From assembly GCA_021827685.1 (NCBI GenBank), contig JAKAUM010000007.1:9842-73841 (forward strand): a stretch of DNA of 64,000 bases, written 5' to 3'. This document shows, piece after piece, positions 1,695 to 61,694 of this stretch (positions are counted from its first letter, which is position 1; the number at the start of each line of letters is the position of its first letter). The translations under genes and the position numbers were made by a program. This DNA is from a bacterium (GTDB taxonomy: Bacteria; Patescibacteriota; Minisyncoccia; UBA6257; 2-01-FULL-56-20). Below the pieces are notes generated by a model. That model saw only the letters and a list, made by a program, of their open reading frames with translations, did not search any database and was not told the origin of the DNA.

Positions 1695-4312
1695 GGATCA
1701 TTCCGGCCGATTCCCGCCTCATCCGGATTCGCGGGGCGGGAAACCGCGATCACCGGCGGCGCAACGCCGCCGCCGGACACCGCCGCGAGCTTGAATGCGT
1801 TTGCGAACACCATGCCGTTGAAATTATCCCAGAAGCTCCTGAAAAGCCGGTGCGCTTCCTGCCGGTATTCTACGAGCGGGTCGCGCTGGCCGTAGGCGCG
1901 AAGGCCGATGGCCTCTTGGATAGCCTCCAATTCTTCCAGATGGTTCATCCACAGCATGTCGAGGATTCCCAGAAGCTGGTTTTTTGCGGCAGGACTCTCG
2001 GCCGCGAGGGCGGCGCGCGCTTCCATTATCTTTTTCATCGCATCGGGATCGTCCGGCGCGGCGGGCGTCGGCGCATCGGCGCCAATAAGCCCTGCTTCCC
2101 CGAGGGCGCGGATCAGATCTCCGCGCGGTCCGCCTTCCGTTCCCGCCGCGCCGCCTCCTTCGCGAGCCGCGCCCGCGCCGCCCGCGGACGCGAGCAGTCC
2201 TTCATAATGCGCCGCCGCCGCCTCGACAACGGCTCGCGCGAGATCCTCCTTTGAAAGTATCTCGAGCATCTCCGACCGGCGGCGGTAGACGGCCGCGCGC
2301 TGCTTATTGAGGACGTCGTCGTATTCAAGGAGGTGTTTCCGCAAGTCGAAGTTCGCGCCTTCCACTTTCTCCTGCGCCTGCTCGACCGCCTTCGTCACGA
2401 ACTTGAACTCGATCGGCTGGTCGTCGGGGACATCGAGCCGCTCCATCATGTTTTTCAGCCGGTCGCCGCCGAAAATCCGGAGAAGGTCGTCCTCGGCGGA
2501 GAGGAAGAACTGCGTGGAGCCGGGATCGCCCTGGCGCCCGGAGCGGCCGCGGAGCTGGTTATCGATGCGCCGCGCTTCGTGGCGCTCGGTTCCGAGCACG
2601 TGCAGGCCGCCGAGCTCGCGCACTTTCGCCGCTTCCTCCGGCGACGGCGGGTTCCCGCCGAGGATGATGTCGACGCCGCGGCCAGCCACGTTCGTCGCCA
2701 CCGTCACCGCGCCGGCGCGGCCCGCTTGGGCGATGATCGCCCCTTCGCGCTCGTTATTCTTCGCATTCAGCGTCTCGTGCGGAATGCCCGCTTCCGAGAG
2801 CGCCGCGGAAAAAAGCTCGTTTTTCGCGATGGAAGTCGTACCCACCAGCACGGGCTGGCCCTTCTCCCGCCGCGCCGCGATCTCGCGCACGACGGCGTCG
2901 ATCTTCGCGCGGAAATTCTTATAAATGAGGTCGTTCAGATCGCGACGGGCGAGGTCCCGGTTCGTCGGGATGCTCACGACTTCGAGCTGGTATACCTTAT
3001 AGAACTCTTCCGCGGAGGTCTGCGCGGTTCCCGTCATGCCGGCGATCTTCCCGTACATGCGGAAATAATTCTGGATGGAAATCTTCGCGTAAGTCCGCGA
3101 CTCGTCCTTGACCATGACGTTCTCTTTCGCTTCGATTGCCTGGTGCAGGCCGCCTTGATACCGGCGGCCGACGAGGATGCGTCCCGTAAACTCGTCGACG
3201 ATCATGACCTCGCCGTTCTTCACGACATAGTCGCGGTCGCGGAAGAAAAGCGCCTTCGCCTTCAAGCTCTCTTCCATGTACCGTACGAGCCGGATGTTCT
3301 CCGGCGCATAAATGTTCCGGAGGCCGAGCGTTTTTTCCACTTTTTCGACGCCTGCGTCAGTGATGGAAACGGATTTTTTCTTCTCGTCCACCGTATAATC
3401 CTCGTCCTTTTCGAGGAGCGCCGCGATGCGGGAAAAGGTCTTATAGGCGTCGCTCGACTGCGCATCCGGCGCCGCGATGATGAGGGGCGTGCGCGCCTCG
3501 TCGATCAGGATGCTGTCCACCTCGTCAATAATCGCGTAATAATGCCCGCGCTGGACGCGGTCTTCGAGCCGATAGACGAGATTGTCGCGCAGGTAGTCAA
3601 AGCCAAATTCGTGGTTCGTGCCGTAGGTCACGTCGGCGGCATAGGCCTCGCCGCGCGCAATCGGACGGAGGAATTCCTGCTGGACAAGGAAACTCCCGGT
3701 TGTATCGCGCTCCTTGTCGAGCAGTTTCGATGCTTCCGGGTTCTGCGCGCCGGCCGCGGCGGCGGCGCCCGCGGCCGCCCCGCCCGCGGCAATCGCCGGG
3801 CCTTCCTCCGGCGCTTTATAGAGCGGGTCGTACGAGAACGCGGCGTTCGGAACAAGGCAGGCGACGCTCAGCCCGAGCGCGCGGTAGATCTGGCCCATCC
3901 AGACGGCGTCGCGGCGCGCGAGGTATTCGTTCACCGTCACCACGTGTACGCCGCGGCCCGCGAGCGCGTTCAGATAGGCGGGCGCCACGGCCGCAAGCGT
4001 CTTCCCTTCCCCCGTCATCATTTCAGCCACCGCCCCGCGGTGCATGACTATGCCGCCCATGAGCTGGACGTCGAACGGGCGCTGGCCGAGAGTCCGCTTC
4101 GCCGCCTCGCGCGCAAGCGCGAAGGCCCGCGGCATAAGGACGTCGAGCGGTTCGCCTCCCGCGGCGCGTTCCTTCAGCTTCATGCTTTCCTCGCGCAATC
4201 CTTCCGCGGAGAGGCCCGCGATCTCGGTTTCGAGGGCACTGATTTCTTTCACCCTCTCCTCAAGCTCCCCGCGCGAGCGCTTGTCGAAAAAATGTTTTAT
4301 GGGGCCGAACAT
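1577..4312 (-). CDS. secA: Preprotein translocase ATPase SecA
   Basis: 911 aa; DEAD-like motor motifs; C-terminal zinc finger CPCGSGKKWKKC. Confidence 0.95.
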   Translation of the reverse strand: MFGPIKHFFDKRSRGELEERVKEISALETEIAGLSAEGLREESMKLKERAAGGEPLDVLMPRAFALAREAAKRTLGQRPFDVQLMGGIVMHRGAVAEMMTGEGKTLAAVAPAYLNALAGRGVHVVTVNEYLARRDAVWMGQIYRALGLSVACLVPNAAFSYDPLYKAPEEGPAIAAGGAAAGAAAAAGAQNPEASKLLDKERDTTGSFLVQQEFLRPIARGEAYAADVTYGTNHEFGFDYLRDNLVYRLEDRVQRGHYYAIIDEVDSILIDEARTPLIIAAPDAQSSDAYKTFSRIAALLEKDEDYTVDEKKKSVSITDAGVEKVEKTLGLRNIYAPENIRLVRYMEESLKAKALFFRDRDYVVKNGEVMIVDEFTGRILVGRRYQGGLHQAIEAKENVMVKDESRTYAKISIQNYFRMYGKIAGMTGTAQTSAEEFYKVYQLEVVSIPTNRDLARRDLNDLIYKNFRAKIDAVVREIAARREKGQPVLVGTTSIAKNELFSAALSEAGIPHETLNAKNNEREGAIIAQAGRAGAVTVATNVAGRGVDIILGGNPPSPEEAAKVRELGGLHVLGTERHEARRIDNQLRGRSGRQGDPGSTQFFLSAEDDLLRIFGGDRLKNMMERLDVPDDQPIEFKFVTKAVEQAQEKVEGANFDLRKHLLEYDDVLNKQRAAVYRRRSEMLEILSKEDLARAVVEAAAAHYEGLLASAGGAGAAREGGGAAGTEGGPRGDLIRALGEAGLIGADAPTPAAPDDPDAMKKIMEARAALAAESPAAKNQLLGILDMLWMNHLEELEAIQEAIGLRAYGQRDPLVEYRQEAHRLFRSFWDNFNGMVFANAFKLAAVSGGGVAPPVIAVSRPANPDEAGIGRNDPCPCGSGKKWKKCGLIGTQEHQANMARGKPGAKHEVTGG

Positions 4313-6756: not shown

Positions 6757-7489
6757 TGGTCACGCTATCCGTGATCTCCCGCGTCCCCGGCTGGAGATTC
6801 GGAACTGCTGCGCTACCCGCGCTAAGCGCCACGGCGGAGTCCATCGCGCCATAGAACGGCTGAGGCAGATATGAGTTCTCCGCCACGCTGACCGGCCGGC
6901 CAAGCGAAACGCCGGCCTCCTGCGCCATCTCCTGCGCCTTTGCCCGCGCCAAGCTGAACGCGTCAGCGCGCGCCGCGGCGAGCGCCTTATTCCCGTCGCT
7001 GAAGGTGAAATCAACCGATCCGACCTGGTTCACGCCGAGCGGCGCGAGGCCGCCGAGCACCGAAGCCACCTTGGAGAGGTCGCGCACTTTGACCGTGACC
7101 GTCTGCGTAAGCATGTAGCCCGAGATGCCGCCGCGCAGAACCGTCTTCCCCGATTGATAAATCGGCGCAAGGCTGTAATCGGCGGTCGCGATATCGCTCG
7201 TCGCGATCCCCTGCGATTCGAGGAATCCGATTGCCGCGTTCATCTTTTGATCGTTGAGATTCGAAAGGTCTGATGGGTTCGCCCCCTGTGTAACGACCGA
7301 GAAGGAAATCTCGGCAAGATCGGGGGCGGCCAAAGTTTTTCCCTGTGCGGTTACCGTAAGCGTATGCGCCGGCGCAAAGCTCTCGCCGAGCCGCCGCACC
7401 GCCGGCATCACGAAGAACACAAGATTCACTATCGCGACCGCGAGAAGCGCGTCCAAAAGAATCCAGAACCATAGTTTCGACCGTTCCAT
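6737..7489 (-). CDS. SIMPL-domain (DUF541) periplasmic/secreted protein
   Basis: N-terminal TM/signal anchor; SIMPL-like core (~26 kDa periplasmic immunogenic protein family). Confidence 0.7.
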   Translation of the reverse strand: MERSKLWFWILLDALLAVAIVNLVFFVMPAVRRLGESFAPAHTLTVTAQGKTLAAPDLAEISFSVVTQGANPSDLSNLNDQKMNAAIGFLESQGIATSDIATADYSLAPIYQSGKTVLRGGISGYMLTQTVTVKVRDLSKVASVLGGLAPLGVNQVGSVDFTFSDGNKALAAARADAFSLARAKAQEMAQEAGVSLGRPVSVAENSYLPQPFYGAMDSAVALSAGSAAVPNLQPGTREITDSVTIVYETK

Positions 7490-12591: not shown

Positions 12592-13020
12592 TCAAATCCC
12601 GAGCTCTCCCAGCTTCTCGGCGATTTCTTCCGACGCGCTCTCGGTCTTCGCCTTGTAGGACTTCCATGCCGCTTCGTCCCATATCTCAATGCGGTTATAA
12701 AGGCCCGCGACGACGGCTTCCTTCTTAAGTCCTGCGTATTTCCGAAGATAGTCCGGAATCAGGATTCGTCCCTGGCTATCCGGCTCCACGTCCGACGCGC
12801 CCGCGAGCATAAGCCGTACGAACGCGCGCGAATTCGCCTGTGCAAGCGGCAGGGCGATAAGCTTCTTCGCGAGCGCATCCCATTCGGCATTCGCAAATAC
12901 AAAAAGACAACTGTCTATTCCGCGCGTGATGATGGCGCCGGCATTAAGTTTTTCGCGAAATTTGGCCGGAATCGCCACCCGACCTTTGATATCTAGATTG
13001 TGTTGGAATTCTCCTAAGAG
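12592..13020 (-). CDS. mraZ: Transcriptional regulator MraZ; start at internal MLLGEF
   Basis: Two MraZ repeats (DIKGRVAIP / DSQGRILIP). Confidence 0.85.
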   Translation of the reverse strand, partial: LLGEFQHNLDIKGRVAIPAKFREKLNAGAIITRGIDSCLFVFANAEWDALAKKLIALPLAQANSRAFVRLMLAGASDVEPDSQGRILIPDYLRKYAGLKKEAVVAGLYNRIEIWDEAAWKSYKAKTESASEEIAEKLGELGI

Positions 13021-13050
13021 CATTGGTTCTGCACAGAAGTGGCGGTTTAT

Positions 13051-13075
13051 CCCCAGATTTATCCACAATTCCCCA
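13051..13075 (-). promoter_or_regulatory. Candidate MraZ operator: three TGGGG/TGTGG repeats with 10-bp periodicity upstream of mraZ
   Basis: Minus-strand reading GTGGGGAATT GTGGATAAAT CTGGGGATAA, 31-55 nt upstream of the mraZ ATG; resembles the TGGGN direct repeats bound by MraZ. Confidence 0.4.
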
Positions 13076-13340
13076 CTTGCATATAACTATACGCCACTAA
13101 GATATAGTGTCAAATATGGACTCCTAGTGAGGAAATGTCGCAAAAAGACAAGGTTTTCCCTAGCTTGTCCGTACCTGTACTATGGGATTATTCACATTTC
13201 CATTGCGCTCGCTTCTCTGCGCATGCTTTCTGACGTGAAACCCGGAGGGCATAATGCCATAAGGCATAATACAAAACGGCGCGCGCGGACGGTGAGGCGA
13301 GTCCTGAAACCGTGGCGGTTACACGGTATAATCGGAGGTA

Positions 13341-13835
13341 ATGGCGGGAAAATCGCGGAAACTGTATTTCGCCCCGGGGGATAGCACGCTCGGCGTTTTT
13401 GCCGGGGAAAGGTTCCGCAGGGGCGATTTCATTGTTCGGTTCACGGGAGCCATCTATGGCGTCAAAGATTTACCCCCTATCGTTAGGCCCCAGGATGACC
13501 GCTTTGTTCAGGTGGGAATACGCAAATACATGGGTCCCTCGGGTGGGGTTGATGATTATTTTAATCACTCTTGTAACCCTAATGCGGGTTTAACGTTCGT
13601 GACGGACAGTAAAATCAATTTGATCGCCATTAAAGACATATCTCCCGGCGAGGAAATCACATGGGATTACTCAACCACCATGGACGAAGATGATTGGGAG
13701 ATGAATTGCAAGTGCGGAGCGGCAAACTGTCGCCGCAGGATTAGAGATTTTAAATATCTTCCCCGCGCGATTCAGAAAAAATATGCCATGCTCGGCATCG
13801 TTCCGGCATACAATCTTGCCCATATGACCGCTTAA
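13341..13835 (+). CDS. SET-domain protein-lysine methyltransferase with post-SET Cys cluster
   Basis: NHSCNPN motif; EEITWDY; CKCGAANCRRR post-SET. Confidence 0.8.
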   Translation: MAGKSRKLYFAPGDSTLGVFAGERFRRGDFIVRFTGAIYGVKDLPPIVRPQDDRFVQVGIRKYMGPSGGVDDYFNHSCNPNAGLTFVTDSKINLIAIKDISPGEEITWDYSTTMDEDDWEMNCKCGAANCRRRIRDFKYLPRAIQKKYAMLGIVPAYNLAHMTA

Positions 13836-13848
13836 GCTGCTTGAGCGG

Positions 13849-13920
13849 TGCGTCTTGCAGGGATCGAACCTGCGGCCTTCCCGATGTGAACGGGACGCTC
13901 TGCCACTGAGCTAAAGACGC
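13849..13920 (-). tRNA. tRNA-Val (anticodon CAC)
   Basis: Manual fold: GCGTCTT acceptor, GCTC/GAGC D-stem, anticodon loop TTCACAT, T-arm GCAGG-TTCGATC-CCTGC. Confidence 0.75.
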
Positions 13921-15321: not shown

Positions 15322-15915
15322 CTAGACGACCCGCCCGAATATTTTTTCCGAGCGAATCAGCCGGGAAGCGGGTATGGCAAAATTAATCTGCCGTGCACCG
15401 CTCCTCAGGGCCCCTGATAATGCCCGTAGGTGCGGATGTTTTTGAACCATCGCACATATACGGGCGATCTTGCTTTCGATACCGGCGGCGGCCTCCAGGT
15501 CGCCGCGGCGGCGCGCAGCGTCTAGGTCCCGTCGTAAGCACCCGTTGTGCAGACAGCGGACCTGTCGGACTTCGGCCCCCGTAAATACGGGCGCACCGAT
15601 TTCCATCGACGAGCTGCCTCTCGCGTAGACGTAGTGACAGAGCCGCGGATCAATCTGCGGCAACTCTGCGAATGCGTTATCTGCCAAGGCCATCAGGCAC
15701 CTGCGCTCGGCAGGGAACGCGCCTCCGGCAGGAACCGGAAGCTCGCAGATCCATGCGGCACCGCTCAGAACAATGATGAGCGGCTCCTGGGAATCGGAAC
15801 GGAGATTCTTATAGCAAAACACTCCGTTCAGATATGCGAAAGCCGTATTCGCTACCGCGTTTAAGGACGTCGCAGGGTGCACCCCTGCGGTGATAGTGGA
15901 GTATTGCGATTGCAT
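15322..15915 (-). CDS. Hypothetical protein (no family recognised)
   Basis: 197-aa ORF with host-like GC; Cys-containing; function not recognisable by eye. Confidence 0.35.
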   Translation of the reverse strand: MQSQYSTITAGVHPATSLNAVANTAFAYLNGVFCYKNLRSDSQEPLIIVLSGAAWICELPVPAGGAFPAERRCLMALADNAFAELPQIDPRLCHYVYARGSSSMEIGAPVFTGAEVRQVRCLHNGCLRRDLDAARRRGDLEAAAGIESKIARICAMVQKHPHLRALSGALRSGARQINFAIPASRLIRSEKIFGRVV

Positions 15916-16260
15916 ACATCCATCCTTTTTGTCGAGATCCGATACTTCGATACTGCCGTTGAGTATAAACCCATGGTTTGCAAAAAGGAAGTTTCGGGTG
16001 TCTCTATTTTACCAAGCTCGCACCTATTTTCAAAATCGGTAATGTGCCACGCGCGGAGCGCGTGGTGAAACGAAACTAAATCGCACGCTCTCCGCCCCGC
16101 CGCCCGCCTCCGCTATCGCTCCGGCGGCAACCTCGCAGAACATTTTCCCTTACAATTTTTCTTTTGCGCCCCCCTGGAAAAATTCAAAAAAGGAAAGGGA
16201 AATTTCTGCTCGGTTCCGCCCTCCAAGTTTTCGGGCGAGGCGGCGAGGATACCAACGCTC

Positions 16261-16306
16261 GGACGGCTCGGCATTCCTCCCCCAGCCCCCTCCTGCCGAG
16301 CCGTCC
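16261..16306. repeat. Perfect 12-bp inverted repeat GGACGGCTCGGC / GCCGAGCCGTCC with a 22-nt C-rich loop
   Basis: Seen directly in sequence at the left edge of the AT-rich islet, ~40 nt upstream of the putative peptide-gene promoter. Confidence 0.5.
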
Positions 16307-16343
16307 TCACTTCGGAGAGAGAAGATGATTCAGAATTTTCTGT

Positions 16344-16372
16344 TTGACTTAGAGACATGCATTTATACATGG
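16344..16372 (+). promoter_or_regulatory. Putative sigma70-like promoter (TTGACT -35; TATACAT/TACATG -10 region)
   Basis: TTGACT then an AT-rich -10-like element ~55 nt upstream of the small peptide ORF; spacing not ideal. Confidence 0.25.
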
Positions 16373-16424
16373 ATGCGGAGATGTTCTTCGCATTATGTAC
16401 CTTAACTCCAGAAAGGAGACTGCC

Positions 16425-16553
16425 ATGAAGAACTCCAAGAAGTTTTCTTGGAAAGTCACCTCCAGTGACAAGCCTCTTCCCGGCACGATCGTGTGTCAGG
16501 AACAGTGCAGTTCCGGTGGTGGCGGCAACGGCAAGTGTGGCACTCGCAAGTAA
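16425..16553 (+). CDS. Small 42-aa Cys/Gly-rich basic peptide (MKNSKKFSWKVTSSDKPLPGTIVCQEQCSSGGGGNGKCGTRK); not in the ORF track
   Basis: AAAGGAG Shine-Dalgarno 6 nt before the ATG; strong intrinsic terminator 27 nt after the stop; upstream promoter-like element; three Cys plus a Gly run at the C-terminus. Confidence 0.45.
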   Translation: MKNSKKFSWKVTSSDKPLPGTIVCQEQCSSGGGGNGKCGTRK

Positions 16554-16579
16554 CACAGTGCCTCGCTCGCTCCCTCAGA

Positions 16580-16613
16580 GCGCAACAACTCTCGAGATTG
16601 TTGCGCTTTTTTT
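16580..16613 (+). terminator. Rho-independent terminator (GCGCAACAA-loop-TTGTTGCGC + T7)
   Basis: 9-bp perfect stem followed by TTTTTTT; sits between the convergent peptide gene and the metallopeptidase gene. Confidence 0.7.
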
Positions 16614-17424
16614 AGTTTGTTACCTCCATAAATCTTTTGGGGTCAGTTTTCATTAACTCTTCCCAAGATAGATTTTTGTTTCTATTTATAAACTCCTTGA
16701 CTAACCAGTAGCCCGTAGAATATCCGTTCCATTTTTTATATTTACCATTTCCAAATAAAAATTCTTTTATCACTTTTTGTTCTTTTGATTCTAGCGTGTT
16801 TTTATCTAAATCTTTTAGAATCTGAAAAGCTTCCTCTTTTTCTAATGCCCCCGCCCACTTTGTAGTTTTAGGATCAAAATATTGTTCCCTAAAATTTTCC
16901 GCCAATCCCTCCAGCAATATTTCATCTAAAAGTGTATAGCTATTAAAGTCATCGTAATGGTGATAGTAATAAATTGTATGATTTAGCTCGTGGGCGACAG
17001 TATTTTTGATAGATTCTTCCGAATATTCTTCTAAATTTATAAACAAATGAAAAACGCAACTATAAACAGCAACCGCCATTACGCCATCAAAAACTTTATC
17101 GTCTTTAGTCGTGAGATATGGATGGACAAAGATAAAATTCCTCGTCGGGACAGATAATTTCTCGTCGCACTTCTCGACAGTTTCCGAAATGACTTTTTCT
17201 ATCTCTGATTTTTGATCTTCGGAAATTTCCTTATACTGTTCAATATTCCCATTTCCAATATGATCTAGTAAGCCCTGCCTTAATAGTTCGATATCAGCAT
17301 AACCAGAATAATCAATACTACCTTGGTTTTTCATCAAGAAGATAATTGATTCAACAATCTCAGTTTTGTCTTTGAATTCTCCGTTTGGAAAATAGAATTC
17401 AACTCGTGATAAATCTTTACTCAT
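16612..17424 (-). CDS. Predicted Zn-dependent metallopeptidase, DUF2268-like (HExxH)
   Basis: VAHELNHTIYY contains an HExxH motif; very AT-rich gene (~30-35% GC) with Lys/Glu/Asn-rich codon usage unlike the host. Confidence 0.65.
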   Translation of the reverse strand: MSKDLSRVEFYFPNGEFKDKTEIVESIIFLMKNQGSIDYSGYADIELLRQGLLDHIGNGNIEQYKEISEDQKSEIEKVISETVEKCDEKLSVPTRNFIFVHPYLTTKDDKVFDGVMAVAVYSCVFHLFINLEEYSEESIKNTVAHELNHTIYYYHHYDDFNSYTLLDEILLEGLAENFREQYFDPKTTKWAGALEKEEAFQILKDLDKNTLESKEQKVIKEFLFGNGKYKKWNGYSTGYWLVKEFINRNKNLSWEELMKTDPKRFMEVTN

Positions 17425-17440
17425 AACTTCATTTTAACAA

Positions 17441-17475
17441 AATAAAAAGAGGCGGGAAGTCGTTAGCTTTCCGCC
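17441..17475 (-). terminator. Minus-strand intrinsic terminator just upstream of the metallopeptidase start
   Basis: Minus strand reads GGCGGAAAG-CTAACGA-CTTCCCGCC followed by TCTTTTTATTTT, then a TAAAAT -10-like box 6 nt before the ATG. Confidence 0.5.
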
Positions 17476-17880
17476 CCAAGCATCACTCGAAAGGATGAGG
17501 AAACTTGGTTAGCTAACCGTAAGCCATCTTTCCGCGTCCAAACCTTTCGGCGATTTCGTACAAACGCTTCATCCCGGCGGGTTCTTATCGATAACCAAGG
17601 GTCATCTGGACAGTTCCAGGAATAAGCACCCTAACAATGCTAAGGTCACCGTTTCCGCCGTAGTCATCCGAGAGCCTGAGTGGAACAGCTAAACATTTCC
17701 AACCCTTACTCGATTTTTCACACAAGCAGAATGATTGGCTCGCACATCCTCCTCGTCGAAAGAAAAGTGCGCGTCGCCGCAGGCGACGCTCCAAATTCGT
17801 TTGGAAAAATGGGGGGATCAGTGGGCGGCGCTTTGCGCCGCCCACAATTCGGTCTCCGAAAAACCGTTAAGTTCTGTTCG

Positions 17881-17954
17881 GGTGCCCCCGGAGGGAATTG
17901 AACCCCCATCGTATCCTTAGGACGGATCCGCTCTATCCGTTGAGCTACGAGGGC
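17881..17954 (-). tRNA. tRNA-Arg (anticodon CCU)
   Basis: Manual fold: GCCCTCG acceptor, GCTC/GAGC D-stem, anticodon loop GTCCTAA, T-arm GGGGG-TTCAATT-CCCTC; G32 unusual. Confidence 0.65.
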
Positions 17955-17997
17955 TTTTGGGATACACTATACGCAATCGGATGCAGGACGGCAATAT

Positions 17998-18068
17998 GGG
18001 CCTATAGTATAGTGGTAGAACGCCTCCATGGCATGGAGGAGGTCCGGGTTCGATTCCCGGTAGGTCCA
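17998..18068 (+). tRNA. tRNA-Ala (anticodon GGC) with G3:U70
   Basis: Manual fold: GGGCCTA/TAGGTCC acceptor with G3-U70, anticodon stem CCTCC/GGAGG, loop ATGGCAT, T-arm CCGGG-TTCGATT-CCCGG. Confidence 0.75.
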
Positions 18069-18082
18069 CGCGGAGTGATTCC

Positions 18083-18931: not shown

Positions 18932-19141
18932 GGACTTATTTTAGCAAAGCGGCGATCTTTTAGGCCCTTGCGCTTTTATATAGCCCGGCGGGGGTGGCCG
19001 AACCGCGCAAATCCCCCGCCCCGCCCCGCCCCGCCTGTTCCGCCTTGTGCCGACGCCCGGGTTCGCTTACTATTTTGATGAAATCCGCGGCTCGTGGCGC
19101 GTGATCCCCCTGCGAGCGGTGGCGGCATCCATATTTAGAGA

Positions 19142-19228
19142 GGAGGCGTGCGTGAGCGGTTGAAACGGACGGTCTTGAAAACCGTTATGCCAGAAATGGC
19201 ATCGAAGGTTCGAATCCTTCCGCCTCCG
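19142..19228 (+). tRNA. tRNA-Ser (anticodon UGA), type II
   Basis: Manual fold: GGAGGCG/CGCCTCC acceptor, 3-bp D-stem CGT/ACG, anticodon loop CTTGAAA, long variable arm TATGCCAGAAATGGCATC, T-arm GAAGG-TTCGAAT-CCTTC. Confidence 0.75.
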
Positions 19229-19306
19229 CCCGTTAGGGCATCGGTTCGAGAGACCTTCCGGCCTCGAGTTTTGCTATCTTTTTGAAATGCAGTTCAGGCG
19301 ATGAAA

Positions 19307-19335
19307 GTCGGCAGGTGTCCAGGATTCGAACCTGC
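19307..19335 (-). other. tRNA 3'-half-like fragment (T-arm GCAGG-TTCGAAT-CCTG + acceptor-like), inverted relative to tRNA-Ser; possible att-site remnant
   Basis: Shares GGTTCGAATCCT with both tRNA-Ser genes; no matching 5' half could be folded. Confidence 0.3.
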
Positions 19336-19366
19336 TGAAGAATAATCCTGATCTATAATACAAATT

Positions 19367-20407
19367 ATGGACTTTGCACGTTTAGACAAACTACGCCCCG
19401 GCAACAAAATTGCCGTCCTTTCCCCTTCCTTCGCTGCGCCGGGGAAATGGCCCTGGGTATATGAGCTCGGCTTGAAGCGCTTGCGTGAGGTATTTGGACT
19501 TGAACCGGTGGAATTCCCCACCACTAAAAAGATCGGCGCTTCAAAAGAGGAACGATCAAAAGATTTGATTGATGCGTTCGAGAATAAAGAGGTTAAGGCG
19601 GTCATCGCGTCCCTCGGCGGCGACGATCAGATAACGTATATCAAAAATCTTCCCGTCGAGCCGTTCGTCAATAATCCCAAGCCATTTTTTGGGTTCAGCG
19701 ACAATACACACTTTGAGAATTTCCTCTGGCTGCATGGCATCCCCTCCTACTACGGCGGATCGCTCTTTACCGAGTTCGCGATGCAAAAACGCATGGATCC
19801 CTACACGGTGGAATATCTTAAGCACGCCCTGTTCGATAAAGACGAATTCGAACTGAAGCCAAGTGATATGTATAACGACATGGGACTCGACTGGAATGAT
19901 CCGGCAAATCTCGACAAAGAGCGCGTCTATGAAAAGAATGAGGGATGGCTCTGGGACGGCACGCAAAATGCCGAAGGCACTACATGGGGCGGGTGCGTAG
20001 AATCCATCGACGAGCTCCTGCGGCACGGGGTTCAAATCCCGTCGCTTCAGGATTTCGAAAATGTCGTGCTTTTTGCCGAAACCTCCGAAGAAATTCCCTC
20101 AGCCGATTACGTGCGCCGCGTCTATCGCGCCCTCGGCGAGCGAGGAATCTTGCAGCGCGTGAAAGCTGTGCTGACCGGCCGCCCGAAAGCGTGGGAATTT
20201 AGTAACGAACGCAACGCGGAAGAGAAACACGCCCACCGGGAAGCGCAAAGAGCGGCAATCACCAAAACCGTAAGGCAGTACAATTCTTCTATCCCGATCA
20301 TCCACAATCTCGACATCGGACACACCGCACCGCAGATTCCTTTGCCGAATGGAAGACGAATCCGAATCGACGCGAAAGAAAAGAAAATATTCGTCGATTT
20401 CTCATGA
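19367..20407 (+). CDS. S66-family LD-carboxypeptidase (MccF/LdcA-like)
   Basis: GFSDNT (catalytic-Ser block), LFAETSEE (Glu block), IGHTAPQIPLPNG (His block); perfect TATAAT 7 nt upstream of the ATG. Confidence 0.8.
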   Translation: MDFARLDKLRPGNKIAVLSPSFAAPGKWPWVYELGLKRLREVFGLEPVEFPTTKKIGASKEERSKDLIDAFENKEVKAVIASLGGDDQITYIKNLPVEPFVNNPKPFFGFSDNTHFENFLWLHGIPSYYGGSLFTEFAMQKRMDPYTVEYLKHALFDKDEFELKPSDMYNDMGLDWNDPANLDKERVYEKNEGWLWDGTQNAEGTTWGGCVESIDELLRHGVQIPSLQDFENVVLFAETSEEIPSADYVRRVYRALGERGILQRVKAVLTGRPKAWEFSNERNAEEKHAHREAQRAAITKTVRQYNSSIPIIHNLDIGHTAPQIPLPNGRRIRIDAKEKKIFVDFS

Positions 20408-21525
20408 GGCATCGTGCGGCGGTATTTGTGCTCGATAACGGCAAAGTTCTCCTCTTCCATCGCTTCAAGAATGGGGATGAATATTATGCCGTTCCGGGCG
20501 GCGGTGTTGAGGCCAACGAAACTCCGGAAGAGGCCGCAATAAGAGAGCTAAAAGAAGAAACCAATTTGGATGTACTGCTCGGAGAAAAAATCGGAGAGCT
20601 CGAAGAAGATAGCAACCGACAATACTTCTATATTGCGAAGTCTTGGGCCGGCACACCGACACTCGGCGGCCCGGAAGCGGAACGCAATTCACCAAACAAC
20701 CAGTATATCCTCGAATGGATACCGATCAAGAAACTGGAAGGTATAAATTTGAGAACTGATATAGCGGCCATTCTTCTGAAACACGCAAACACGACCCAAT
20801 CCGACATCTTCTCCCGCATCAAAGCGCTCAACCTCCCCTTCGGCGAATATGTCGTCGTTTCAAGCGGCACCCTTGAGGCGCTGGGCATCCGTCCGGCGCG
20901 CGATCTGGATATCGCCGCAACGTCAAAGCTTTTCGAGAAACTCCGCGCGGAAGGCGGATGGACCGAAGAAGAGCGGTACGGGAAGATCTTCCTCAGCAAG
21001 CCCGGCATCGATATCATCCGCCAGCTTTCATGGGATACTTACCCCACCACTACCGAAGAAGCCATTAGATCGGCGCTCGTCATCGAAGGCATCCCATTTA
21101 TGAATCTTGATGAGTTGAAGCGATTCAAACGAGCGCTTGGCCGCGAAAAGGATTTTACAGATATCAAACTTATCGAAAAATATGAAGAAAATGCCGCACT
21201 GCGGTTCCTCCATAAAACCGTAACCGCAACTATCGATCGCCCGCTCGGGAGCGAGCATCCAAAGTGGAATTTTGAATATCCAATCAACTACGGATCTATC
21301 CAAAATACGAAAAGCAGCGATGGCGAGGAGGTTGATGCCTATGTGTTGGGCATAAATGAGCCGCTCAAGGAATTCACGGGAAAATGTATCGCGATCATCC
21401 ATCGCCTGGATGATGATGACGACAAGCTGGTGCTCGCGCCCGAAGGCATGGATTTTAGCGACGACGACATCCGGACAACCACCCATTTCCAAGAGCAATA
21501 CTTTACATCGGTGATTGTGAGATAA
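20404..21525 (+). CDS. Three-domain fusion: Nudix hydrolase + polβ-type nucleotidyltransferase + family-I inorganic pyrophosphatase-like domain
   Basis: Nudix box (GGVEANETPEEAAIRELKEETNL); middle VVVSSGTLEALGIRPARDLDIA (GS...DxD NTase signature); C-terminal YPINYGSIQNT...DGEEVDAYVLG...DDDDDKLVLAPEG resembles soluble PPase; 4-nt overlap with upstream gene. Confidence 0.65.
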   Translation: MRHRAAVFVLDNGKVLLFHRFKNGDEYYAVPGGGVEANETPEEAAIRELKEETNLDVLLGEKIGELEEDSNRQYFYIAKSWAGTPTLGGPEAERNSPNNQYILEWIPIKKLEGINLRTDIAAILLKHANTTQSDIFSRIKALNLPFGEYVVVSSGTLEALGIRPARDLDIAATSKLFEKLRAEGGWTEEERYGKIFLSKPGIDIIRQLSWDTYPTTTEEAIRSALVIEGIPFMNLDELKRFKRALGREKDFTDIKLIEKYEENAALRFLHKTVTATIDRPLGSEHPKWNFEYPINYGSIQNTKSSDGEEVDAYVLGINEPLKEFTGKCIAIIHRLDDDDDKLVLAPEGMDFSDDDIRTTTHFQEQYFTSVIVR

Positions 21526-21532
21526 TAAGAAT

Positions 21533-22165
21533 ATGAAGCTTCTCCTCACTTCCTGCGGATGGGAATACAATCCGAAGATCGCGAAAGAATTCCTGCGCCT
21601 GATCAGTAAGAAACCCGCTCAAATAAAAATCTTTCTGGTCACTACCGCGGACAAGAAAAACAAAGATTGGAAATGGGTGAAGCGGCAAGTGAGGATGATC
21701 GCGAGAATCGGCATCGCCGAGAAGAATATCGAGATTTTCAGTTTGGATAGAAAAATAAGGAAAGATGAACTTGCATACATCGACGCCGTCTATGTATGCG
21801 GAGGTAACACGTTCCTCTATCTGCACGGCATCAGAAAGACAGGATTGGATAAGGTGATAGCCAAATTCACCAAAAAGGGCGGGCTGTATTATGGCATAAG
21901 CGCGGGCAGCATTCTTGCAGGACCAGACATCGCGTTCATCACTCCCCTGGATGACCCGAGCGTAGTCCGAGCGCTTCCAACGGTGAAGGTGATACACACA
22001 AAAGGACTTTGCCTGACCAATGTAGGCGTCGCCCCACACTATAACAACAAGGAGTACGTAGGCGTCATTAACGAATCCCGCGCGAAATCAAAATTTCCCA
22101 TCGTGCCGCTTACCGATACGCAGGCGCTCGCGATCGTCGGGCGGAAAAAGAAAATCATTGAATAA
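21533..22165 (+). CDS. Peptidase E / S51 family (alpha-aspartyl dipeptidase or cyanophycinase-like)
   Basis: VCGGNTFLYL and GISAGSIL (Ser nucleophile) motifs. Confidence 0.75.
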   Translation: MKLLLTSCGWEYNPKIAKEFLRLISKKPAQIKIFLVTTADKKNKDWKWVKRQVRMIARIGIAEKNIEIFSLDRKIRKDELAYIDAVYVCGGNTFLYLHGIRKTGLDKVIAKFTKKGGLYYGISAGSILAGPDIAFITPLDDPSVVRALPTVKVIHTKGLCLTNVGVAPHYNNKEYVGVINESRAKSKFPIVPLTDTQALAIVGRKKKIIE

Positions 22166-22168
22166 CCT

Positions 22169-22666
22169 ATGATCATCTTTCTCAACGGCTCCATTAATTC
22201 CGGCAAGAGTACCGCGGCAAAACTCCTTGCCGAGAAGATCTCAAACTCGGCAATCGTGGAGATCGATGCTCTGCGCGACATGATTGCGTGGATGCAGATC
22301 GATCAGGCGGTTCCCATAAATCTTGAAAATGCCGTAGCGGTCATCCGCATTTTCACAAAGCACGGCATCTCCTGCATCGTCCCTTATCCTCTCTCCGAAA
22401 AGAACCACGCCTATATGACCGATGCGCTTGCGGGCATCGGGACGCCGATCCATTATTTTACTCTCGCGCCATCCATTGAGACGGCACTCTCCGACCGGGG
22501 TGGCAGGAAACTCGACGGTGTGGAACGGGATCGGATCAAGCGTCACTATGCAATCGGCATCCATACACCATCGTTCGGCACGACCATCGACAATTCAAAG
22601 CGCACACCACAAGAGACAGTGGAAATAATTTTGGCTAGTATCGATCTTGAGCGTCATAACATTTAA
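22169..22666 (+). CDS. Small P-loop NTPase, predicted small-molecule/nucleoside kinase (AAA_33/CPT-like)
   Basis: Walker A GSINSGKST at the N-terminus; 165 aa. Confidence 0.6.
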   Translation: MIIFLNGSINSGKSTAAKLLAEKISNSAIVEIDALRDMIAWMQIDQAVPINLENAVAVIRIFTKHGISCIVPYPLSEKNHAYMTDALAGIGTPIHYFTLAPSIETALSDRGGRKLDGVERDRIKRHYAIGIHTPSFGTTIDNSKRTPQETVEIILASIDLERHNI

Positions 22667-22671
22667 AATGT

Positions 22672-23298
22672 ATGAAAACGATGTGTATCCTCTATGTCGT
22701 CAGGCATGGCGAAACCGATGCGAACGCGAAAGGCCTCATTCAGGGCCAATCAGATTTTTCTCTTACAAGCATCGGGGAGAGCCAAGCGACCAATCTCGCA
22801 AAGAAATTTAAACATATCCATTTCGCCGCCGTATTCTCATCGGACCTAATACGTGCACGGAGGACCGCCGAGATAATTACACTTGAAAAGAAGCTCGCCG
22901 TTAATACCAGTCATCTTCTTCGTGAACGCAATTTCGGAAAGTACGAGGGGAAGCCGCAAACGCTATTTCGAGAAGAGAATGAGGAATTTCTGAGACAACT
23001 TACGGCATTGCCCTATGAGGAGGGGAAAAAATTGAAAGCCGCGGAAGATATCGAAAACGATGACGAATTAACGGCTCGGTTCATCACATTCTTGCGCGAG
23101 ATTGCCGTAACGTATCAGGGAAAGACCGTTTTGGTTGTTACGCACGCTGGTGTGATGCGTGCGTTTTTGAGACATATGAATCACGATTCGTCGAGCGGCT
23201 TTATCGAAAACGCGGGATACTTCAGGCTCCGTTCGGACGGAATCAACTTTTTCGTCGATGAGACGTCTGGCATAGGCGAGTCTCCTCGATCGCGCTGA
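22672..23298 (+). CDS. Histidine phosphatase superfamily protein (phosphoglycerate-mutase-like)
   Basis: VVRHGETDANAKG (RHGE motif); SSDLIRARRTAE. Confidence 0.8.
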   Translation: MKTMCILYVVRHGETDANAKGLIQGQSDFSLTSIGESQATNLAKKFKHIHFAAVFSSDLIRARRTAEIITLEKKLAVNTSHLLRERNFGKYEGKPQTLFREENEEFLRQLTALPYEEGKKLKAAEDIENDDELTARFITFLREIAVTYQGKTVLVVTHAGVMRAFLRHMNHDSSSGFIENAGYFRLRSDGINFFVDETSGIGESPRSR

Positions 23299-23503
23299 TC
23301 GTCCCGATACAATTTGTTTTAGGCACACACATATGGCGGACTAGGTTTTGAATTCGGCAAGGGCTTCGTTTGGCGTCTTGCCGCCCAATCCGCATGTGTA
23401 GGAATCAAGATGAAGAGAAATACTGGCGCGAAACGAGCTGCGATCAACAATGGAGAAACCTATCGAGAAACCGAGATACCTCAAATTTCGCCCGTAAGCT
23501 ATA

Positions 23504-23893
23504 ATGACCGCAACAAAAATCGTCATAACTCATGCAAGCGCGCTGCCTTGGAAAGGCGAATTTTATGCGGCGGTTCGAGCATCTCGGCTGTACGAAAATA
23601 ATGATGTTTTCTTGCCGCAAGAGAAAAACAAACCGGAGCAGATTACCAAAGAGCGAATCGAACATTGCGACCTCATGATTGCTGAAGTTTCTTGCCCCTC
23701 AACGGGGCAAGAAATAGAACTTGGATGGGCGGATGCCTATCATCGCCCGATTATTTGCGTTCATCAGGAAAAAAACGCTGTTTCGAACTCGCTACGATTT
23801 ACCACGAGCGAATTCATCAGCTATAAGGATTCCGAAAACCTGATTGCACAGCTTGAGCGGCTGATCCTAGAGAAATATCAACCCGCGGCATAG
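23504..23893 (+). CDS. Nucleoside 2-deoxyribosyltransferase-like (NDT/YtoQ fold) protein
   Basis: CDLMIAEVSCPSTGQEIELGWADAYHRPII, the NDT-like ExG + conserved acidic pattern. Confidence 0.55.
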   Translation: MTATKIVITHASALPWKGEFYAAVRASRLYENNDVFLPQEKNKPEQITKERIEHCDLMIAEVSCPSTGQEIELGWADAYHRPIICVHQEKNAVSNSLRFTTSEFISYKDSENLIAQLERLILEKYQPAA

Positions 23894-23966
23894 TTTCCGC
23901 ATAATGTTCTTCTTATAGAAGCGCTTGCGGCCGAACCCGCGCGCGCAAACATGGTAGAATGAGATT

Positions 23967-25049
23967 ATGGATGACAAGCGCGTGATCCGGATTGTCGAGA
24001 AGGTTATGCCCTCGGTAGTCTCGATCGTCATTTCGAAACATCTGGAAGACCTGGAAAAAGAGCTTCCGAAGGAAATGTTCCCCTTCATCCCGGAGGGGGC
24101 GGGCGGGCGGCGCCCCGGGATCGGCAAGGGAGCCGGCGCCGGAACGCTCAAAATCCCGAGCGATATGGTGGATAAAAACGGCATGGTCCAAGTAGGCGGC
24201 GGATCAGGCACGGTGGTCGCGCCGGACGGCCTCATCCTCACGAACAAGCACGTGGTCGCCGACCGGCGTGCGGCATATACGGTGATTCTCGATGGGGACC
24301 GGCGGTTCCCGGCGGAGATCCTGAGCCGCGATCCCATCAACGATGTCGCTATCCTTAAAATCGGCGCAGGCGGGCTTCCCTTCTTAAAACTCGGCGATGC
24401 GGCGAAGCTGAAGCTCGGCCAGTCGGTCATCGCAATCGGGAACGCCCTCGGCATTTTCCGGAACACGGTCTCTCTCGGCATTGTTTCCGGCCTGTCCCGC
24501 TCCGTGACGGCGCAGGCGGAGCCGGACGCCGCGCCGCAGGAGATGCGCGGACTCATCCAGACCGATGCCGCAATCAATCCCGGCAACTCGGGCGGCCCGC
24601 TCGTGGACAAAAACTGCCTCGTCGTCGGCGTCAACACCGCAGTCGTTTCCGGCGCGCAGAGCATCGGCTTTGCGATCCCCGTGAACGCCGCCCGGCGCGA
24701 CCTCGAGGACATCGCGCGCTACGGACGCATCCGGCGCCCCCTTCTCGGCCTCCGCTATCTTATGATCGACGACGACCTTAGGGCGAAGCTCGACCTCCCG
24801 GTGGACTACGGCGCGCTCGCCATCCGCGAAAGCAACCATGACGGAGCGGTGGTGCCGGAGAGCCCCGCCGCGAAAGCCGGCCTCCGCGAAAAAGACATCG
24901 TGCTCTCGCTGAACGGGGCGCGCCTCGATCGCGACCATCCTATCCAGGATTTTCTGGAAAATTTGAACGTCGGCGACGAAATCGCGCTCACCGTCCTCCG
25001 CGGCGCGAAACGGTTCGAGGCGAAACTGACGCTTGCAGAAAGGAAATAA
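23967..25049 (+). CDS. htrA: HtrA/DegP-family serine protease with PDZ domain
   Basis: TNKHVV (His), D, GNSGGPL (Ser) triad; C-terminal PDZ; TAGAAT -10 just upstream of the ATG. Confidence 0.85.
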   Translation: MDDKRVIRIVEKVMPSVVSIVISKHLEDLEKELPKEMFPFIPEGAGGRRPGIGKGAGAGTLKIPSDMVDKNGMVQVGGGSGTVVAPDGLILTNKHVVADRRAAYTVILDGDRRFPAEILSRDPINDVAILKIGAGGLPFLKLGDAAKLKLGQSVIAIGNALGIFRNTVSLGIVSGLSRSVTAQAEPDAAPQEMRGLIQTDAAINPGNSGGPLVDKNCLVVGVNTAVVSGAQSIGFAIPVNAARRDLEDIARYGRIRRPLLGLRYLMIDDDLRAKLDLPVDYGALAIRESNHDGAVVPESPAAKAGLREKDIVLSLNGARLDRDHPIQDFLENLNVGDEIALTVLRGAKRFEAKLTLAERK

Positions 25050-56351: not shown

Positions 56352-56352
56352 A

Positions 56353-57315
56353 TTATTTCGAGGACTTTATTTTATTAAGAAGTGCTTCCATATTTTTCAT
56401 GCTCAGGGCGTCTTTCACCGATACTGTCGCCGCATTCGGGTTCAGTTTTTTTAATACCGCCAATTTTGCCTTGCGCGTCGCTTCATCCGCGAGATCGCTT
56501 TTGGAGAGAAATAGGTACTCCGGCTTCTTCAGCAGTTCTTTGCCGTGCGCGCCCAATTCTTTGCGGACCAATTTATAGTCCCCTTTCGGGTCGCCGGATT
56601 CGGCGGAAACAAAATGGAAGAGGATCCTGGTGCGCTCGATGTGCCGCAGAAATTTTGTCCCCAATCCTTTTCCGGACGATGAGCCCTCGATAAGACCGGG
56701 AATATCGGCGATGGTCAGTTCGTAGTATGCGCCGAGGTTCGGCTCGAGCGTGGTGAAAGGATAATCCGCAACCTTGCTCCGGGCGTTCGTGAGCGCGTTC
56801 AACATGCTGGATTTCCCGGCGTTCGGCAGGCCTACGAATCCAATGTCGGCAATAAGCCTAAGCTCCAAATGCAGTTCGAACGTTTCGCCCGGCCGTCCGC
56901 CCTGGGATTGAAGCGGAGAGGTGTTGCGCGAAGAACGGAAGTGAAAGTTGCCCCGGCCGCCGATGCCGCCGCGCGCAAGGAGTATGCGCTCGCCGATCTT
57001 TTCCACGCTTGTTTCGGTCCCGTTCGTGAGATTGTGCACTTCGGTTCCTACCGGGAGCTTGAGCACAAGGTCGTCGCCCCTGCGTCCGTCGCGCAGCTGG
57101 CCCTGACCGACGCCGCCGTCCTTTGCTCCAAATTCTTTTTTATACCGGAATTGTTTCAGCGCGCTGACATCCGAGACGCCCACGGCAAATACGTCGCCAC
57201 CCTTTCCGCCGGACGCGCCCGTGGGCCCGAGGGCTTTGAGGTTGCTGTTAAATGCCACCGCGCCCTTGCCGCCGTTTCCGGCAGAAATTTTGATATGTAC
57301 ATCATCTATGAGCAT
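56353..57315 (-). CDS. obg: GTPase Obg (no C-terminal OCT domain)
   Basis: Gly-rich Obg fold, then G1 GLPNAGKSS, G3 DIPG, G4 SKSD. Confidence 0.9.
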   Translation of the reverse strand: MLIDDVHIKISAGNGGKGAVAFNSNLKALGPTGASGGKGGDVFAVGVSDVSALKQFRYKKEFGAKDGGVGQGQLRDGRRGDDLVLKLPVGTEVHNLTNGTETSVEKIGERILLARGGIGGRGNFHFRSSRNTSPLQSQGGRPGETFELHLELRLIADIGFVGLPNAGKSSMLNALTNARSKVADYPFTTLEPNLGAYYELTIADIPGLIEGSSSGKGLGTKFLRHIERTRILFHFVSAESGDPKGDYKLVRKELGAHGKELLKKPEYLFLSKSDLADEATRKAKLAVLKKLNPNAATVSVKDALSMKNMEALLNKIKSSK

Positions 57316-57379
57316 CCGGTTAGAATGGCATTCTAAACTATTATCACTATTATTGCCATCGGTCCTGCGCTATGATCGA

Positions 57380-57859: not shown

Positions 57860-58023
57860 CTGCCTGATTGCTCCCCGATTTGGACGAGTTTCGAACCAGA
57901 GATTGGGAACAGATTGTACGTGGTTTAGCTTATCTCGATGTGCCGCGGCTGCGGCTTGCAGTGGCGGCATAAGGGGGGGTATATTGGCGACAAAGGTCGA
58001 TTACAAGGCCTATTACATACATC

Positions 58024-58629: not shown

Positions 58630-58655
58630 ACGAGTGAGTGCGGAACGATAAGCGT

Positions 58656-61689: not shown

Positions 61690-61694
61690 AACCA

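Follow-up and report, generated by a model that had tools for sequence, protein, structure and literature searches.

The 64-kb stretch of DNA analyzed here, called the window throughout (positions 9,842 to 73,841 of contig JAKAUM010000007.1; all coordinates below are those of the window), carries next to tRNA-Arg(CCU) a small islet in which a gene for a 42-amino-acid (aa) peptide converges on a gene for a zinc metallopeptidase. We found that this islet is very probably a degenerate copy of a horizontally mobile cassette of the candidate phyla radiation (CPR) for a linear azole-containing peptide (LAP), a ribosomally made, posttranslationally modified peptide (RiPP) of the thiazole/oxazole-modified microcin (TOMM) type; its enzyme gene is reduced to a stump, and its protease gene has been kept. 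Judged from sequence, the intact cassette is ~3.9 kb long and has three transcription units. An earlier note on this DNA took the two genes for an autonomous two-gene module, a description that fails because the locus is decayed and the complete triad of genes occurs at 23 other loci. The same note's idea of a precursor peptide with its processing peptidase belongs to the right family of ideas, but the pair makes up two of the three parts of a classical YcaO-type RiPP cassette.

Relatives of the islet were collected by protease-first searches, from the contigs of homologue clusters and from a scan of one genome per species, which gave 26 genome loci, all of them in metagenome genomes of CPR/Patescibacteria where a name is given; single loci are denoted below by L numbers. 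The window genome is itself assigned to the CPR from these relatives and from its gene content. They share a recurrent layout: a gene for a 722- to 755-aa protein with Nitroreductase and YcaO domains is followed after about 60 nucleotides (nt) by the DUF2268 protease gene, toward which a 41- to 50-aa open reading frame (ORF) is convergently transcribed. With metagenome contigs included, the full triad of YcaO fusion, DUF2268 protease, and convergent peptide is present at 23 distinct loci. The linkage holds in both directions, because look-ups that started from YcaO homologues (47 to 53% identity) also found protease and peptide in three of three cases; this reverse sample is small, and most loci came from searches with the protease.

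The fusion enzyme (726 aa) consists of an N-terminal leader-recognition domain (RRE), a SagB-type FMN dehydrogenase, and a YcaO cyclodehydratase. Residues ~367 to 725 match the YcaO/SagD cyclodehydratases (PF02624, E = 1.2e-36; NCBIfam SagD TIGR03604, E = 2.2e-39), and residues ~128 to 330 match the SagB-type dehydrogenases (PF00881 Nitroreductase, E = 1.5e-13; TIGR03605, E = 8.8e-18, which is below NCBIfam's own cutoff). Its relatives by sequence in the PDB are TruD, MusD, and McbC (McbC, E = 5e-4). The RRE that marks LAP clusters, on the enzyme or on a partner protein, is here part of the enzyme itself. By analogy with YcaO/TOMM chemistry, the fusion would act as a single-polypeptide azole synthetase: the RRE would bind the leader of the precursor, the YcaO domain would cyclodehydrate core Cys and Ser residues to azolines, the dehydrogenase would oxidize these to azoles, and the DUF2268 peptidase would remove the leader.

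Little of this enzyme is left in the window. A tblastn search with the L006 enzyme matched only its last 91 residues (17752 to 17486; 76% identity; E = 4e-36), interrupted by two in-frame stops, and returned no other YcaO in the 64 kb. YcaO, complete at 23 related loci, is a stump of only ~75 to 90 codons in the window, and the SagB-type dehydrogenase, fused N-terminally to YcaO in relatives, is deleted. Homology in blastn to L062, L059, L038, L039, and L006 ends at 17709 to 17711, so that nucleotide homology is secure to ~17711. The earlier note saw no modification enzyme nearby and considered a classical RiPP unsupported for that reason; it missed the truncated enzyme pseudogene lying inside the very segment it described. 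In the interval from the stump to the tRNA, CGAACAGAACTTAACGGTTTTTCGG...GTGGGCGGCGCAAAGCGCC (minus strand) can be aligned to the L006 cassette at its left outer end. Because this outer arm survives beside the tRNA, a complete cassette was once present, and ~2.1 kb, with the left promoter and ~635 to 650 enzyme codons, were lost by internal deletion. The history of the locus then runs as follows: a complete cassette inserted at the 3′ end of tRNA-Arg(CCU), with CACCCGAA at both flanks, and then decayed; the internal deletion occurred, the remaining stump gained two nonsense mutations, and the peptide promoter lost 9 nt of its spacer. The lesions number at least four (the deletion, the two nonsense mutations, and the peptide-promoter deletion). 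No damage is seen in the protease ORF, its catalytic residues, or the terminator and extended −10 box ahead of it. On its gene content, the window locus is predicted to be unable to make an azole peptide.

Selection on the parts that remain was compared by Nei-Gojobori estimates against the nearest intact relatives, L062 (89.5% nucleotide identity), L059, L038, and L039. For the protease, the ratio of nonsynonymous to synonymous substitution rates (omega, or dN/dS) is 0.10 to 0.12 on the window branch and 0.10 to 0.19 on the other branches. Over the last 71 codons of the stump, the window has eight amino acid changes of its own, two of them nonsense, as against zero to three in relatives, and omega is 0.19 to 0.26 with stops not counted; values of ~0.3 to 0.43 were discarded, having been inflated by ~20 poorly alignable codons at the deletion junction. 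At the excess seen in the YcaO tail, ~38 nonsynonymous changes would be expected in the protease on the window branch, where ~18 are seen. We conclude from these comparisons that the protease appears to be under constraint and the enzyme stump does not, with the peptide undecided. Since the protease unit is intact and shows purifying selection, it is probably the only part of the cassette still in use.

A profile search bore out the earlier note's assignment of the 270-aa protein to DUF2268 (PF10026; E = 1.4e-32; 113.3 bits, where the gathering cutoff is 23.6; profile positions 3 to 194 of 195), with HELNH as its zinc-binding motif. H145, E146, H149, E172, and E176 are invariant in 31 homologues, and the structure model is confident, with a predicted local distance difference test score (pLDDT) of 93.6. 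The protein has the HExxH motif, downstream Glu ligand, and thermolysin-like catalytic fold of the clan MA gluzincins. Its homologues form 146 clusters, named only "Paceibacterota," "Moranbacteria," or "YjaZ"; solved structures include no relative by sequence, and a literature search turned up nothing functional on DUF2268 and no characterized family member. From gene linkage and fold, we infer that DUF2268 serves as the leader peptidase of the cassette.

The protease gene appears to be its own transcription unit, as the earlier note had it: a conserved terminator is followed by an extended −10 box located 6 to 7 nt before the ATG. Similar boxes (TGnTAnnAT-like) stand 5 to 9 nt ahead of the protease ATG in about 20 relatives. 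Because the box lies just before the ATG and there is no Shine-Dalgarno sequence, the protease mRNA is predicted to be separate and leaderless. The terminator and AT-rich promoter described upstream of this gene in the earlier note are both real, but the terminator is the 3′ end of the lost YcaO gene. It forms an 11-bp hairpin with a T-run after the YcaO stop, and in an alignment of 20 sequences 97.2% of its cells are paired, with compensatory changes in 8 of 11 pairs; none of 500 shuffles scored as high. Both this hairpin and the one between the convergent genes, each with its T-run, are conserved in relatives, which agrees with the earlier claim of terminators around both genes.

Two side observations concern DUF2268 genes elsewhere. 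At L015 (6876 to 8348), a solo DUF2268 gene, whose product is 76% identical to that of the window, is followed by two convergent small HExxH genes (247 aa with AHEMLH and 229 aa with GHEIMH); this locus holds neither a YcaO gene nor a peptide gene. L041 and L042 are the same locus, in which the long-read assembly has a 62-aa DUF2268 fragment (L041, 6885 to 7073) and the short-read assembly has a 241-aa ORF (L042, 6346 to 7071); the break in L041 is probably a long-read indel error rather than real decay.

The peptide gene, which is also called by the NCBI annotation, is conserved wherever the cassette occurs and was rightly taken as a real gene. Downstream of the protease, each of the 23 distinct intact cassettes, as well as L028 and L029, has a convergent ORF with a KKFSWK leader motif and a (Q)CSSGGGGNGKCG core, and the joint conservation of peptide and protease on which the earlier note had placed weight is thereby borne out. 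The closest cassettes encode near-identical peptides (MKNPKKFSWKVTSKDKPLPGTIVCQEQCSSGGGGNGKCGADK in L006 and MKSPKKFSWKVTSKDKPLPGTIVCQEQCSSGGGGNGKCGTGK in L062); the core in related cassettes is CQEQCSSGGGGNGKCG, which the 42-aa ORF of the window also holds. The KKFSWK motif and a QC-S-S-G-rich ...GNGKCG core persist down to 34% protease identity, and precursors range from 41 to 50 aa. In the window as in all cassettes, the gene has the form expected of a LAP precursor, a short product with a leader and a core rich in Cys, Ser, and Thr, encoded beside the enzymes. Among intact copies, dN/dS of the peptide is 0.08 to 0.25; the window branch shows about three changes, low dN, and an unchanged core, although 42 codons are too short for a verdict on selection.

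The expression signals of the peptide gene are only partly preserved. The GGAG element ends 6 nt ahead of the ATG, and comparison of cassettes places AGAAAGGAGAC ahead of this ATG. A hairpin at the 5′ end of the mRNA leader has 96% of its cells paired in 11 sequences, with three compensatory pairs, as against 46 to 65% in slid controls. The terminator hairpin is read from the sequence, and the protease stop codon (16612 to 16614) falls inside its T-run; in all relatives the same convergent site has a hairpin whose stem sequences have changed and which has an A-run toward the protease. Intact relatives have the promoter TTGACA-N17-TATATT/TATAAT; compared with all of at least 12 of these, the window spacer is shorter by 9 nt, and the conserved A at position 2 of the −10 box is lost. 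A promoter scan gave no plus-strand site at 16344 to 16369. Of the near-ideal Shine-Dalgarno sequence, promoter-like element, and strong terminator reported in the earlier note, the GGAG, the terminator hairpin, and a conserved −35 box stand, but the promoter spacer lacks 9 nt. The peptide ORF is intact, and its expression at this locus is probably poor.

Several points weigh against the reading of the islet as a decayed LAP cassette. The azole product of these cassettes is drawn from analogy, and the leader-peptidase role of DUF2268 from gene linkage and fold; the selection contrast comes from simple Nei-Gojobori estimates on short stretches, the stump contributing 71 codons. The peptide ORF shows no damage, in its core or elsewhere, and the alternative −10 box TATACA, at 14-nt spacing, might give some transcription. 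The search for YcaO covered 64 kb, and an intact second cassette elsewhere in the genome could modify the peptide in trans.

The strongest of the other readings, though unlikely, is that DUF2268 is not, or not only, a leader peptidase: it would cleave the azole peptide itself and would be kept, after the production genes decay, against the peptide of neighbors. This would explain the insulated leaderless unit, the ongoing selection, the YcaO losses in L028 and L029, and the solo proteases. The protease has its own promoter and is separated from the YcaO gene by the conserved terminator; it is the only lesion-free part of the cassette in the window, where purifying selection continues; and the cassettes carry no other candidate immunity or export gene. 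YcaO was lost independently, with the protease kept, in L028 (an open 138-codon YcaO tail, protease, and peptide) and L029 (the YcaO terminator, protease, and peptide only), and protease homologues stand alone in L015, L017, and L021. Moreover, intact cassettes ~90% identical to that of the window occur in the same sequencing series as the window population (SRR13206469 versus SRR13205815 and SRR13221994). However, the survival of the protease is a biased pattern, since the protease was the query for most loci, with only three YcaO-first look-ups, and cassettes without a protease are invisible to such searches. L028 and L029 also keep the peptide gene, which a model of immunity only does not require, and for a cassette of three genes it is simpler to suppose that the protease removes the leader. 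It is correspondingly doubtful that DUF2268 is a stand-alone determinant of resistance to azole peptides, with CPR populations repeatedly dropping a costly YcaO and keeping the protease and sometimes the peptide.

Modification in trans would leave the window with a working RiPP module, in which a YcaO or an intact cassette elsewhere in the genome modifies the peptide and the local protease matures it. We regard this as improbable. The peptide ORF, KKFSWK motif, core, Shine-Dalgarno sequence, 5′ hairpin, and terminator are all intact, peptide dN on the window branch is low (about three changes), and the 64 kb are only part of a 343-kb contig; however, the window has no YcaO and a damaged peptide promoter, none of the examined loci held two cassettes, and the intactness of so short an ORF carries little weight. 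The locus might instead be a relic in which all three genes are nonfunctional and the protease ORF is open for want of time, as its lesions would allow. This appears quite improbable given the lack of a nonsynonymous excess in the protease, the persistence of 270 AT-rich codons without a stop or frameshift, and the intact protease promoter and catalytic residues. A reading in which the Cys/Gly-rich peptide stays unmodified, works as a toxin or signal with no modification enzyme involved, and is cut by its own protease is very improbable: peptide and protease are indeed found together in three places that lack an intact YcaO (the window, L028, and L029), but a YcaO stump or its terminator persists upstream in all three, marking them as decay products, and the frequency of the full triad, the exact conservation of the core at Cys and Ser sites of the kind that form azoles, and the damaged promoter of the window all speak against such a pair.

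Sequence comparison supports the earlier claim that the islet DNA is foreign and was placed at the 3′ end of tRNA-Arg(CCU): the 8-nt repeat CACCCGAA overlaps the tRNA 3′ end, and homologous cassettes have unrelated flanks, with flanking genes that differ at every cassette locus. Cassettes are 76 to 90% identical in nucleotide sequence across genomes of 31 to 60% GC; within the cassette, the protease gene has 28 to 35% GC in the closest copies (28 to 44% across all) and the YcaO gene 37 to 53%. In the window the 8-mer has just two occurrences, each on the minus strand and at a border of cassette homology. Two matches per window are at chance level; for a second copy within 10 nt of the other junction, we estimate p at roughly 4e-4. 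The islet thus shows the tRNA 3′ end and flanking direct repeats of a tRNA-linked island. A tRNA 3′ end faces the cassette within 130 to 480 nt at 7 of ~19 loci scanned for tRNAs (the window, L006, L012, L013, L014 on both sides, L022, and L027), and the tRNA differs from locus to locus (Arg-CCU, Leu-UAG, Leu-CAA, Ile-UAU, Val-UAC, Glu-CUC, and Arg-UCU). The junctions of L006 share CACCAA, and its left junction adjoins a duplicated fragment of a tRNA-Leu 3′ end (L006, 3505 to 3523); the junction motif AGAACTTAACGG is common to the window and L006 only. These sequence patterns suggest that an enzyme supplied in trans inserts the cassette site-specifically at the 3′ ends of tRNAs.

Like tRNA-linked islands, then, the islet combines a tRNA 3′ end, deviating composition, and a short direct repeat overlapping that end. 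It differs from tRNA-linked integrative elements in that neither the island nor any intact cassette, with only its three genes, has an integrase, transposase, or recombinase ORF; in that the tRNA varies by locus; and in that the intact element is only ~3.9 kb, with long imperfect inverted arms that are the promoter regions of its two outer genes. We did not assign it to the classical transposons with identical terminal inverted repeats, as its long arms are imperfect and do not agree at their tips. Carriage by a phage or virus was rejected as well, no protease relative having been found in viral contigs. A search of metagenome contigs for an empty site, with the flanking EamA protein as the query, found as its nearest relative a protein 55% identical on a 1.5-kb contig, without synteny; other EamA relatives were ~40% identical and lacked tRNA-Ala/tRNA-Arg synteny, and no empty site was obtained.

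In many cassettes, 40 to 135 nt are common to the regions upstream of YcaO and of the peptide, in inverted orientation; at nine loci, these shared segments stop just before the −35 boxes, at −69 (YcaO) and −87 (peptide). The right arm in the window, whose sequence recurs inverted ahead of YcaO in intact relatives, has hairpins, a palindrome at 16047 to 16066 and GGACGGCTCGG...CCGAGCCGTCC at 16258 to 16306; positions 16049 to 16090 are 93% identical to the left arm of L006, and 16262 to 16306 match both L006 arms. Dozens of metagenome contigs with the cassette measure only ~3.3 to 3.7 kb and stop within the inverted arms (among them L007, L038, and L039); assemblers that break at the arms will usually leave the cassette out of binned CPR genomes, and gene-cluster surveys will usually undercount it. 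The marine cassette L008 (TARA) lies between direct repeats of ~160 nt (3419 to 3579 and 7114 to 7275; 89 to 94% identical) rather than inverted arms, and adjoins a gene for a Bsp6I restriction enzyme and one for a fusion of LexA-peptidase-S24 and DNA methylase. The intact cassette in L059 (1 to 3500; JGI Ga0210057_1000089), which is ~88% identical, adjoins genes for an ATP-grasp MvdD-like ligase, an M16 peptidase, and an ABC transporter; these neighbors look like a graspetide-type RiPP cluster, which would put two RiPP systems side by side in one CPR genome.

The composition of the islet is less uniform than the earlier note had it. The 813-nt protease ORF has 33.0% GC and 32% GC at third codon positions (GC3), where the window mean is 58.4% GC (z = −4.5) and neighboring host genes have a GC3 of 60 to 74%; it is the lowest-GC stretch of such length in the 64 kb, the next lowest elsewhere having 43.9%. 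AT richness holds for this ORF but not for the peptide gene (53.5% GC), the region upstream of it (53%), or the spacer on the tRNA side (17430 to 17880; 49 to 56%), and the background given as ~65 to 70% GC measured about 52 to 64% locally. The location of the islet, placed by the earlier note at 16081 to 17880, was sound, but the island is slightly larger (15993 to 17884), with the direct repeat at its borders. The islet is not an assembly chimera, since four independent assemblies are 100% identical over 15900 to 18000 (2.1 kb). The window sequence also forms part of the 343-kb contig DAHVPJ010000001.1 in NCBI assembly GCA_027318325.1. The 450-nt gap at 17430 to 17880 gave no Rfam match at gathering thresholds or at E ≤ 10 apart from tRNAs and noise; a noncoding RNA in this hairpin-bearing gap was rejected, the gap being YcaO pseudogene stump and cassette-arm remnant. 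Features of the islet are collected in Table 1.

Table 1. Features of the probable decayed cassette and its borders (window coordinates)
Feature	Position	Strand	Details
Right-border copy of 8-nt direct repeat	15993-16000	minus	CACCCGAA; cassette homology to L006 begins at 15992
Noncoding outer arm upstream of peptide gene	16001-16343	plus	GC-rich hairpins; sequence homology to L006 arms
Damaged peptide promoter	16344-16369	plus	−35 TTGACT 16344-16349; −10 homologue TGCATT 8 nt downstream; alternative −10 TATACA 16364-16369, 14-nt spacing
Hairpin at 5′ end of peptide mRNA leader	16373-16393	plus	ATGCGGAGA-TGT-TCTTCGCAT
Probable precursor peptide gene, 42 aa	16425-16553	plus	Leader MKNSKKFSWKVTSSDKPLPGTIV, core CQEQCSSGGGGNGKCGTRK; Shine-Dalgarno GGAG 16415-16418
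Terminator hairpin between convergent genes	16579-16613 (stem 16579-16607)	plus	AGCGCAACAA-loop-TTGTTGCGCT and T-run
DUF2268 zinc metallopeptidase gene, 270 aa	16612-17424	minus	H145-E146-x-x-H149 (HELNH) and E172/E176; GC 33%
Extended −10 box	17431-17439	minus	TGTTAAAAT; 6-7 nt upstream of protease ATG, without Shine-Dalgarno
Intrinsic terminator of former YcaO gene	17439-17477	minus	Stem 17449-17477, T-run 17439-17448
Pseudogene stump of RRE-SagB-YcaO fusion	17486-17752	minus	Residues ~636/650-726, two in-frame stops; stop TGA 17483-17485
Remnant of left outer arm of cassette	17753-17876	minus	Hairpins (terminator-like) at 17821-17845 and 17771-17789; alignment to L006 left end
Left-border copy of 8-nt direct repeat	17877-17884	minus	CACCCGAA; overlaps last nucleotides of tRNA-Arg
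tRNA-Arg(CCT)	17881-17954	minus	ARAGORN; Rfam 56.4 bits; 3′ end abuts island
tRNA-Ala(GGC)	17998-18069	plus	tRNA search and Rfam

Within the right arm of the island, a promoter-like site (TTGAAA-16-TAAAAT with TG; 16006 to 16033, minus strand) faces outward to the host gene at 15322 to 15915, whose 197-aa product has no family match. The sequence around this site is conserved in L006 (7395 to 7430), and the neighboring gene may have had its own promoter replaced by the island arm or may be transcribed from it. Other parts of the window also have lowered GC. A patch at 12900 to 13850 (41 to 56%) contains a SET-domain gene (13341 to 13835; PF00856, E = 2.3e-16) between mraZ and tRNA-Val(CAC) (13847 to 13920) and may be another tRNA-adjacent acquisition. 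About 5 kb of lower GC (48 to 53%; 19140 to 24000) begin right after tRNA-Ser(TGA) (19142 to 19230), with genes for an LD-carboxypeptidase (S66), a fusion of NUDIX and inorganic pyrophosphatase domains (373 aa), and an S51 peptidase, and may be another tRNA-linked island. GC is also low, 46 to 56%, at positions 55000 to 64000.

Cassettes of this kind are already known at survey level, and the window is a degenerate example. Sharrar et al. (2020, mBio, PMC7298704) reported 110 LAP clusters in 93 CPR genomes (51 Parcubacteria), 89 with a nitroreductase beside YcaO; their hosts are Parcubacteria, Microgenomates, and other CPR, and the peptidase was proposed to remove the leader. In combining YcaO, nitroreductase, peptidase, and a small precursor, those clusters resemble the present cassette family, which almost certainly overlaps that set, whereas the window holds a remnant only. 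That study was an antiSMASH survey, whose one illustrated cluster has an 84-aa precursor and separately annotated genes; the fusion architecture, DUF2268 identity, conserved 42-aa precursor, mobility, and decayed copies are not in it. Searchable papers contained nothing that names DUF2268 and YcaO together, the core motif GGGGNGKCG, or the combination of YcaO, dehydrogenase, fusion, and Parcubacteria. Nor did they hold a description of the RRE-SagB-YcaO fusion, its DUF2268 partner, the conserved 42-aa precursor, the leaderless protease unit, cassette transfer across GC backgrounds, tRNA-end junctions, or decayed copies.

The system closest in function is microcin B17, in which the precursor McbA is modified by the McbBCD synthetase, the leader is removed by host TldD/TldE, and mcbEFG provide export and immunity. 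The cassette shares with it a Gly/Ser/Cys-rich core and the pairing of YcaO (McbD) with an FMN dehydrogenase (McbC), which in microcin B17 yields thiazoles and oxazoles. Unlike microcin B17, the cassette has no separate E1-like McbB scaffold, since RRE, dehydrogenase, and YcaO form one polypeptide; it encodes its own gluzincin peptidase in place of TldD/E and lacks mcbEFG-like genes; and its core is far shorter, at ~19 aa with three Cys and two Ser. Cyanobactin pathways (LynD/TruD and ThcOx) differ in using the subtilisin-like proteases PatA/PatG, where the cassette has a DUF2268 zincin, and in macrocyclizing their product; their YcaO and oxidase are separate proteins with an RRE each, whereas in the cassette a single RRE serves both domains.

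What looked like an orphan pair of peptide and protease is thus best treated as the wreck of a YcaO-type RiPP cassette, which should not be scored as a new two-gene system and which gene-cluster finders keyed to YcaO would miss. What is of interest is chiefly the cassette family and the reason for the protease's retention; a decayed enzyme beside a conserved protease raises the question of whether the protease is also an immunity factor. The DUF2268 family gains a concrete candidate substrate, and the fusion, as a predicted minimal single-polypeptide azole synthetase, offers itself for biochemical work. Because the core peptide is almost invariant, its target is likely to be strongly conserved. 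CPR bacteria, with their reduced genomes and dependence on hosts, appear to pass a very compact azole-peptide cassette among lineages that differ greatly in base composition.

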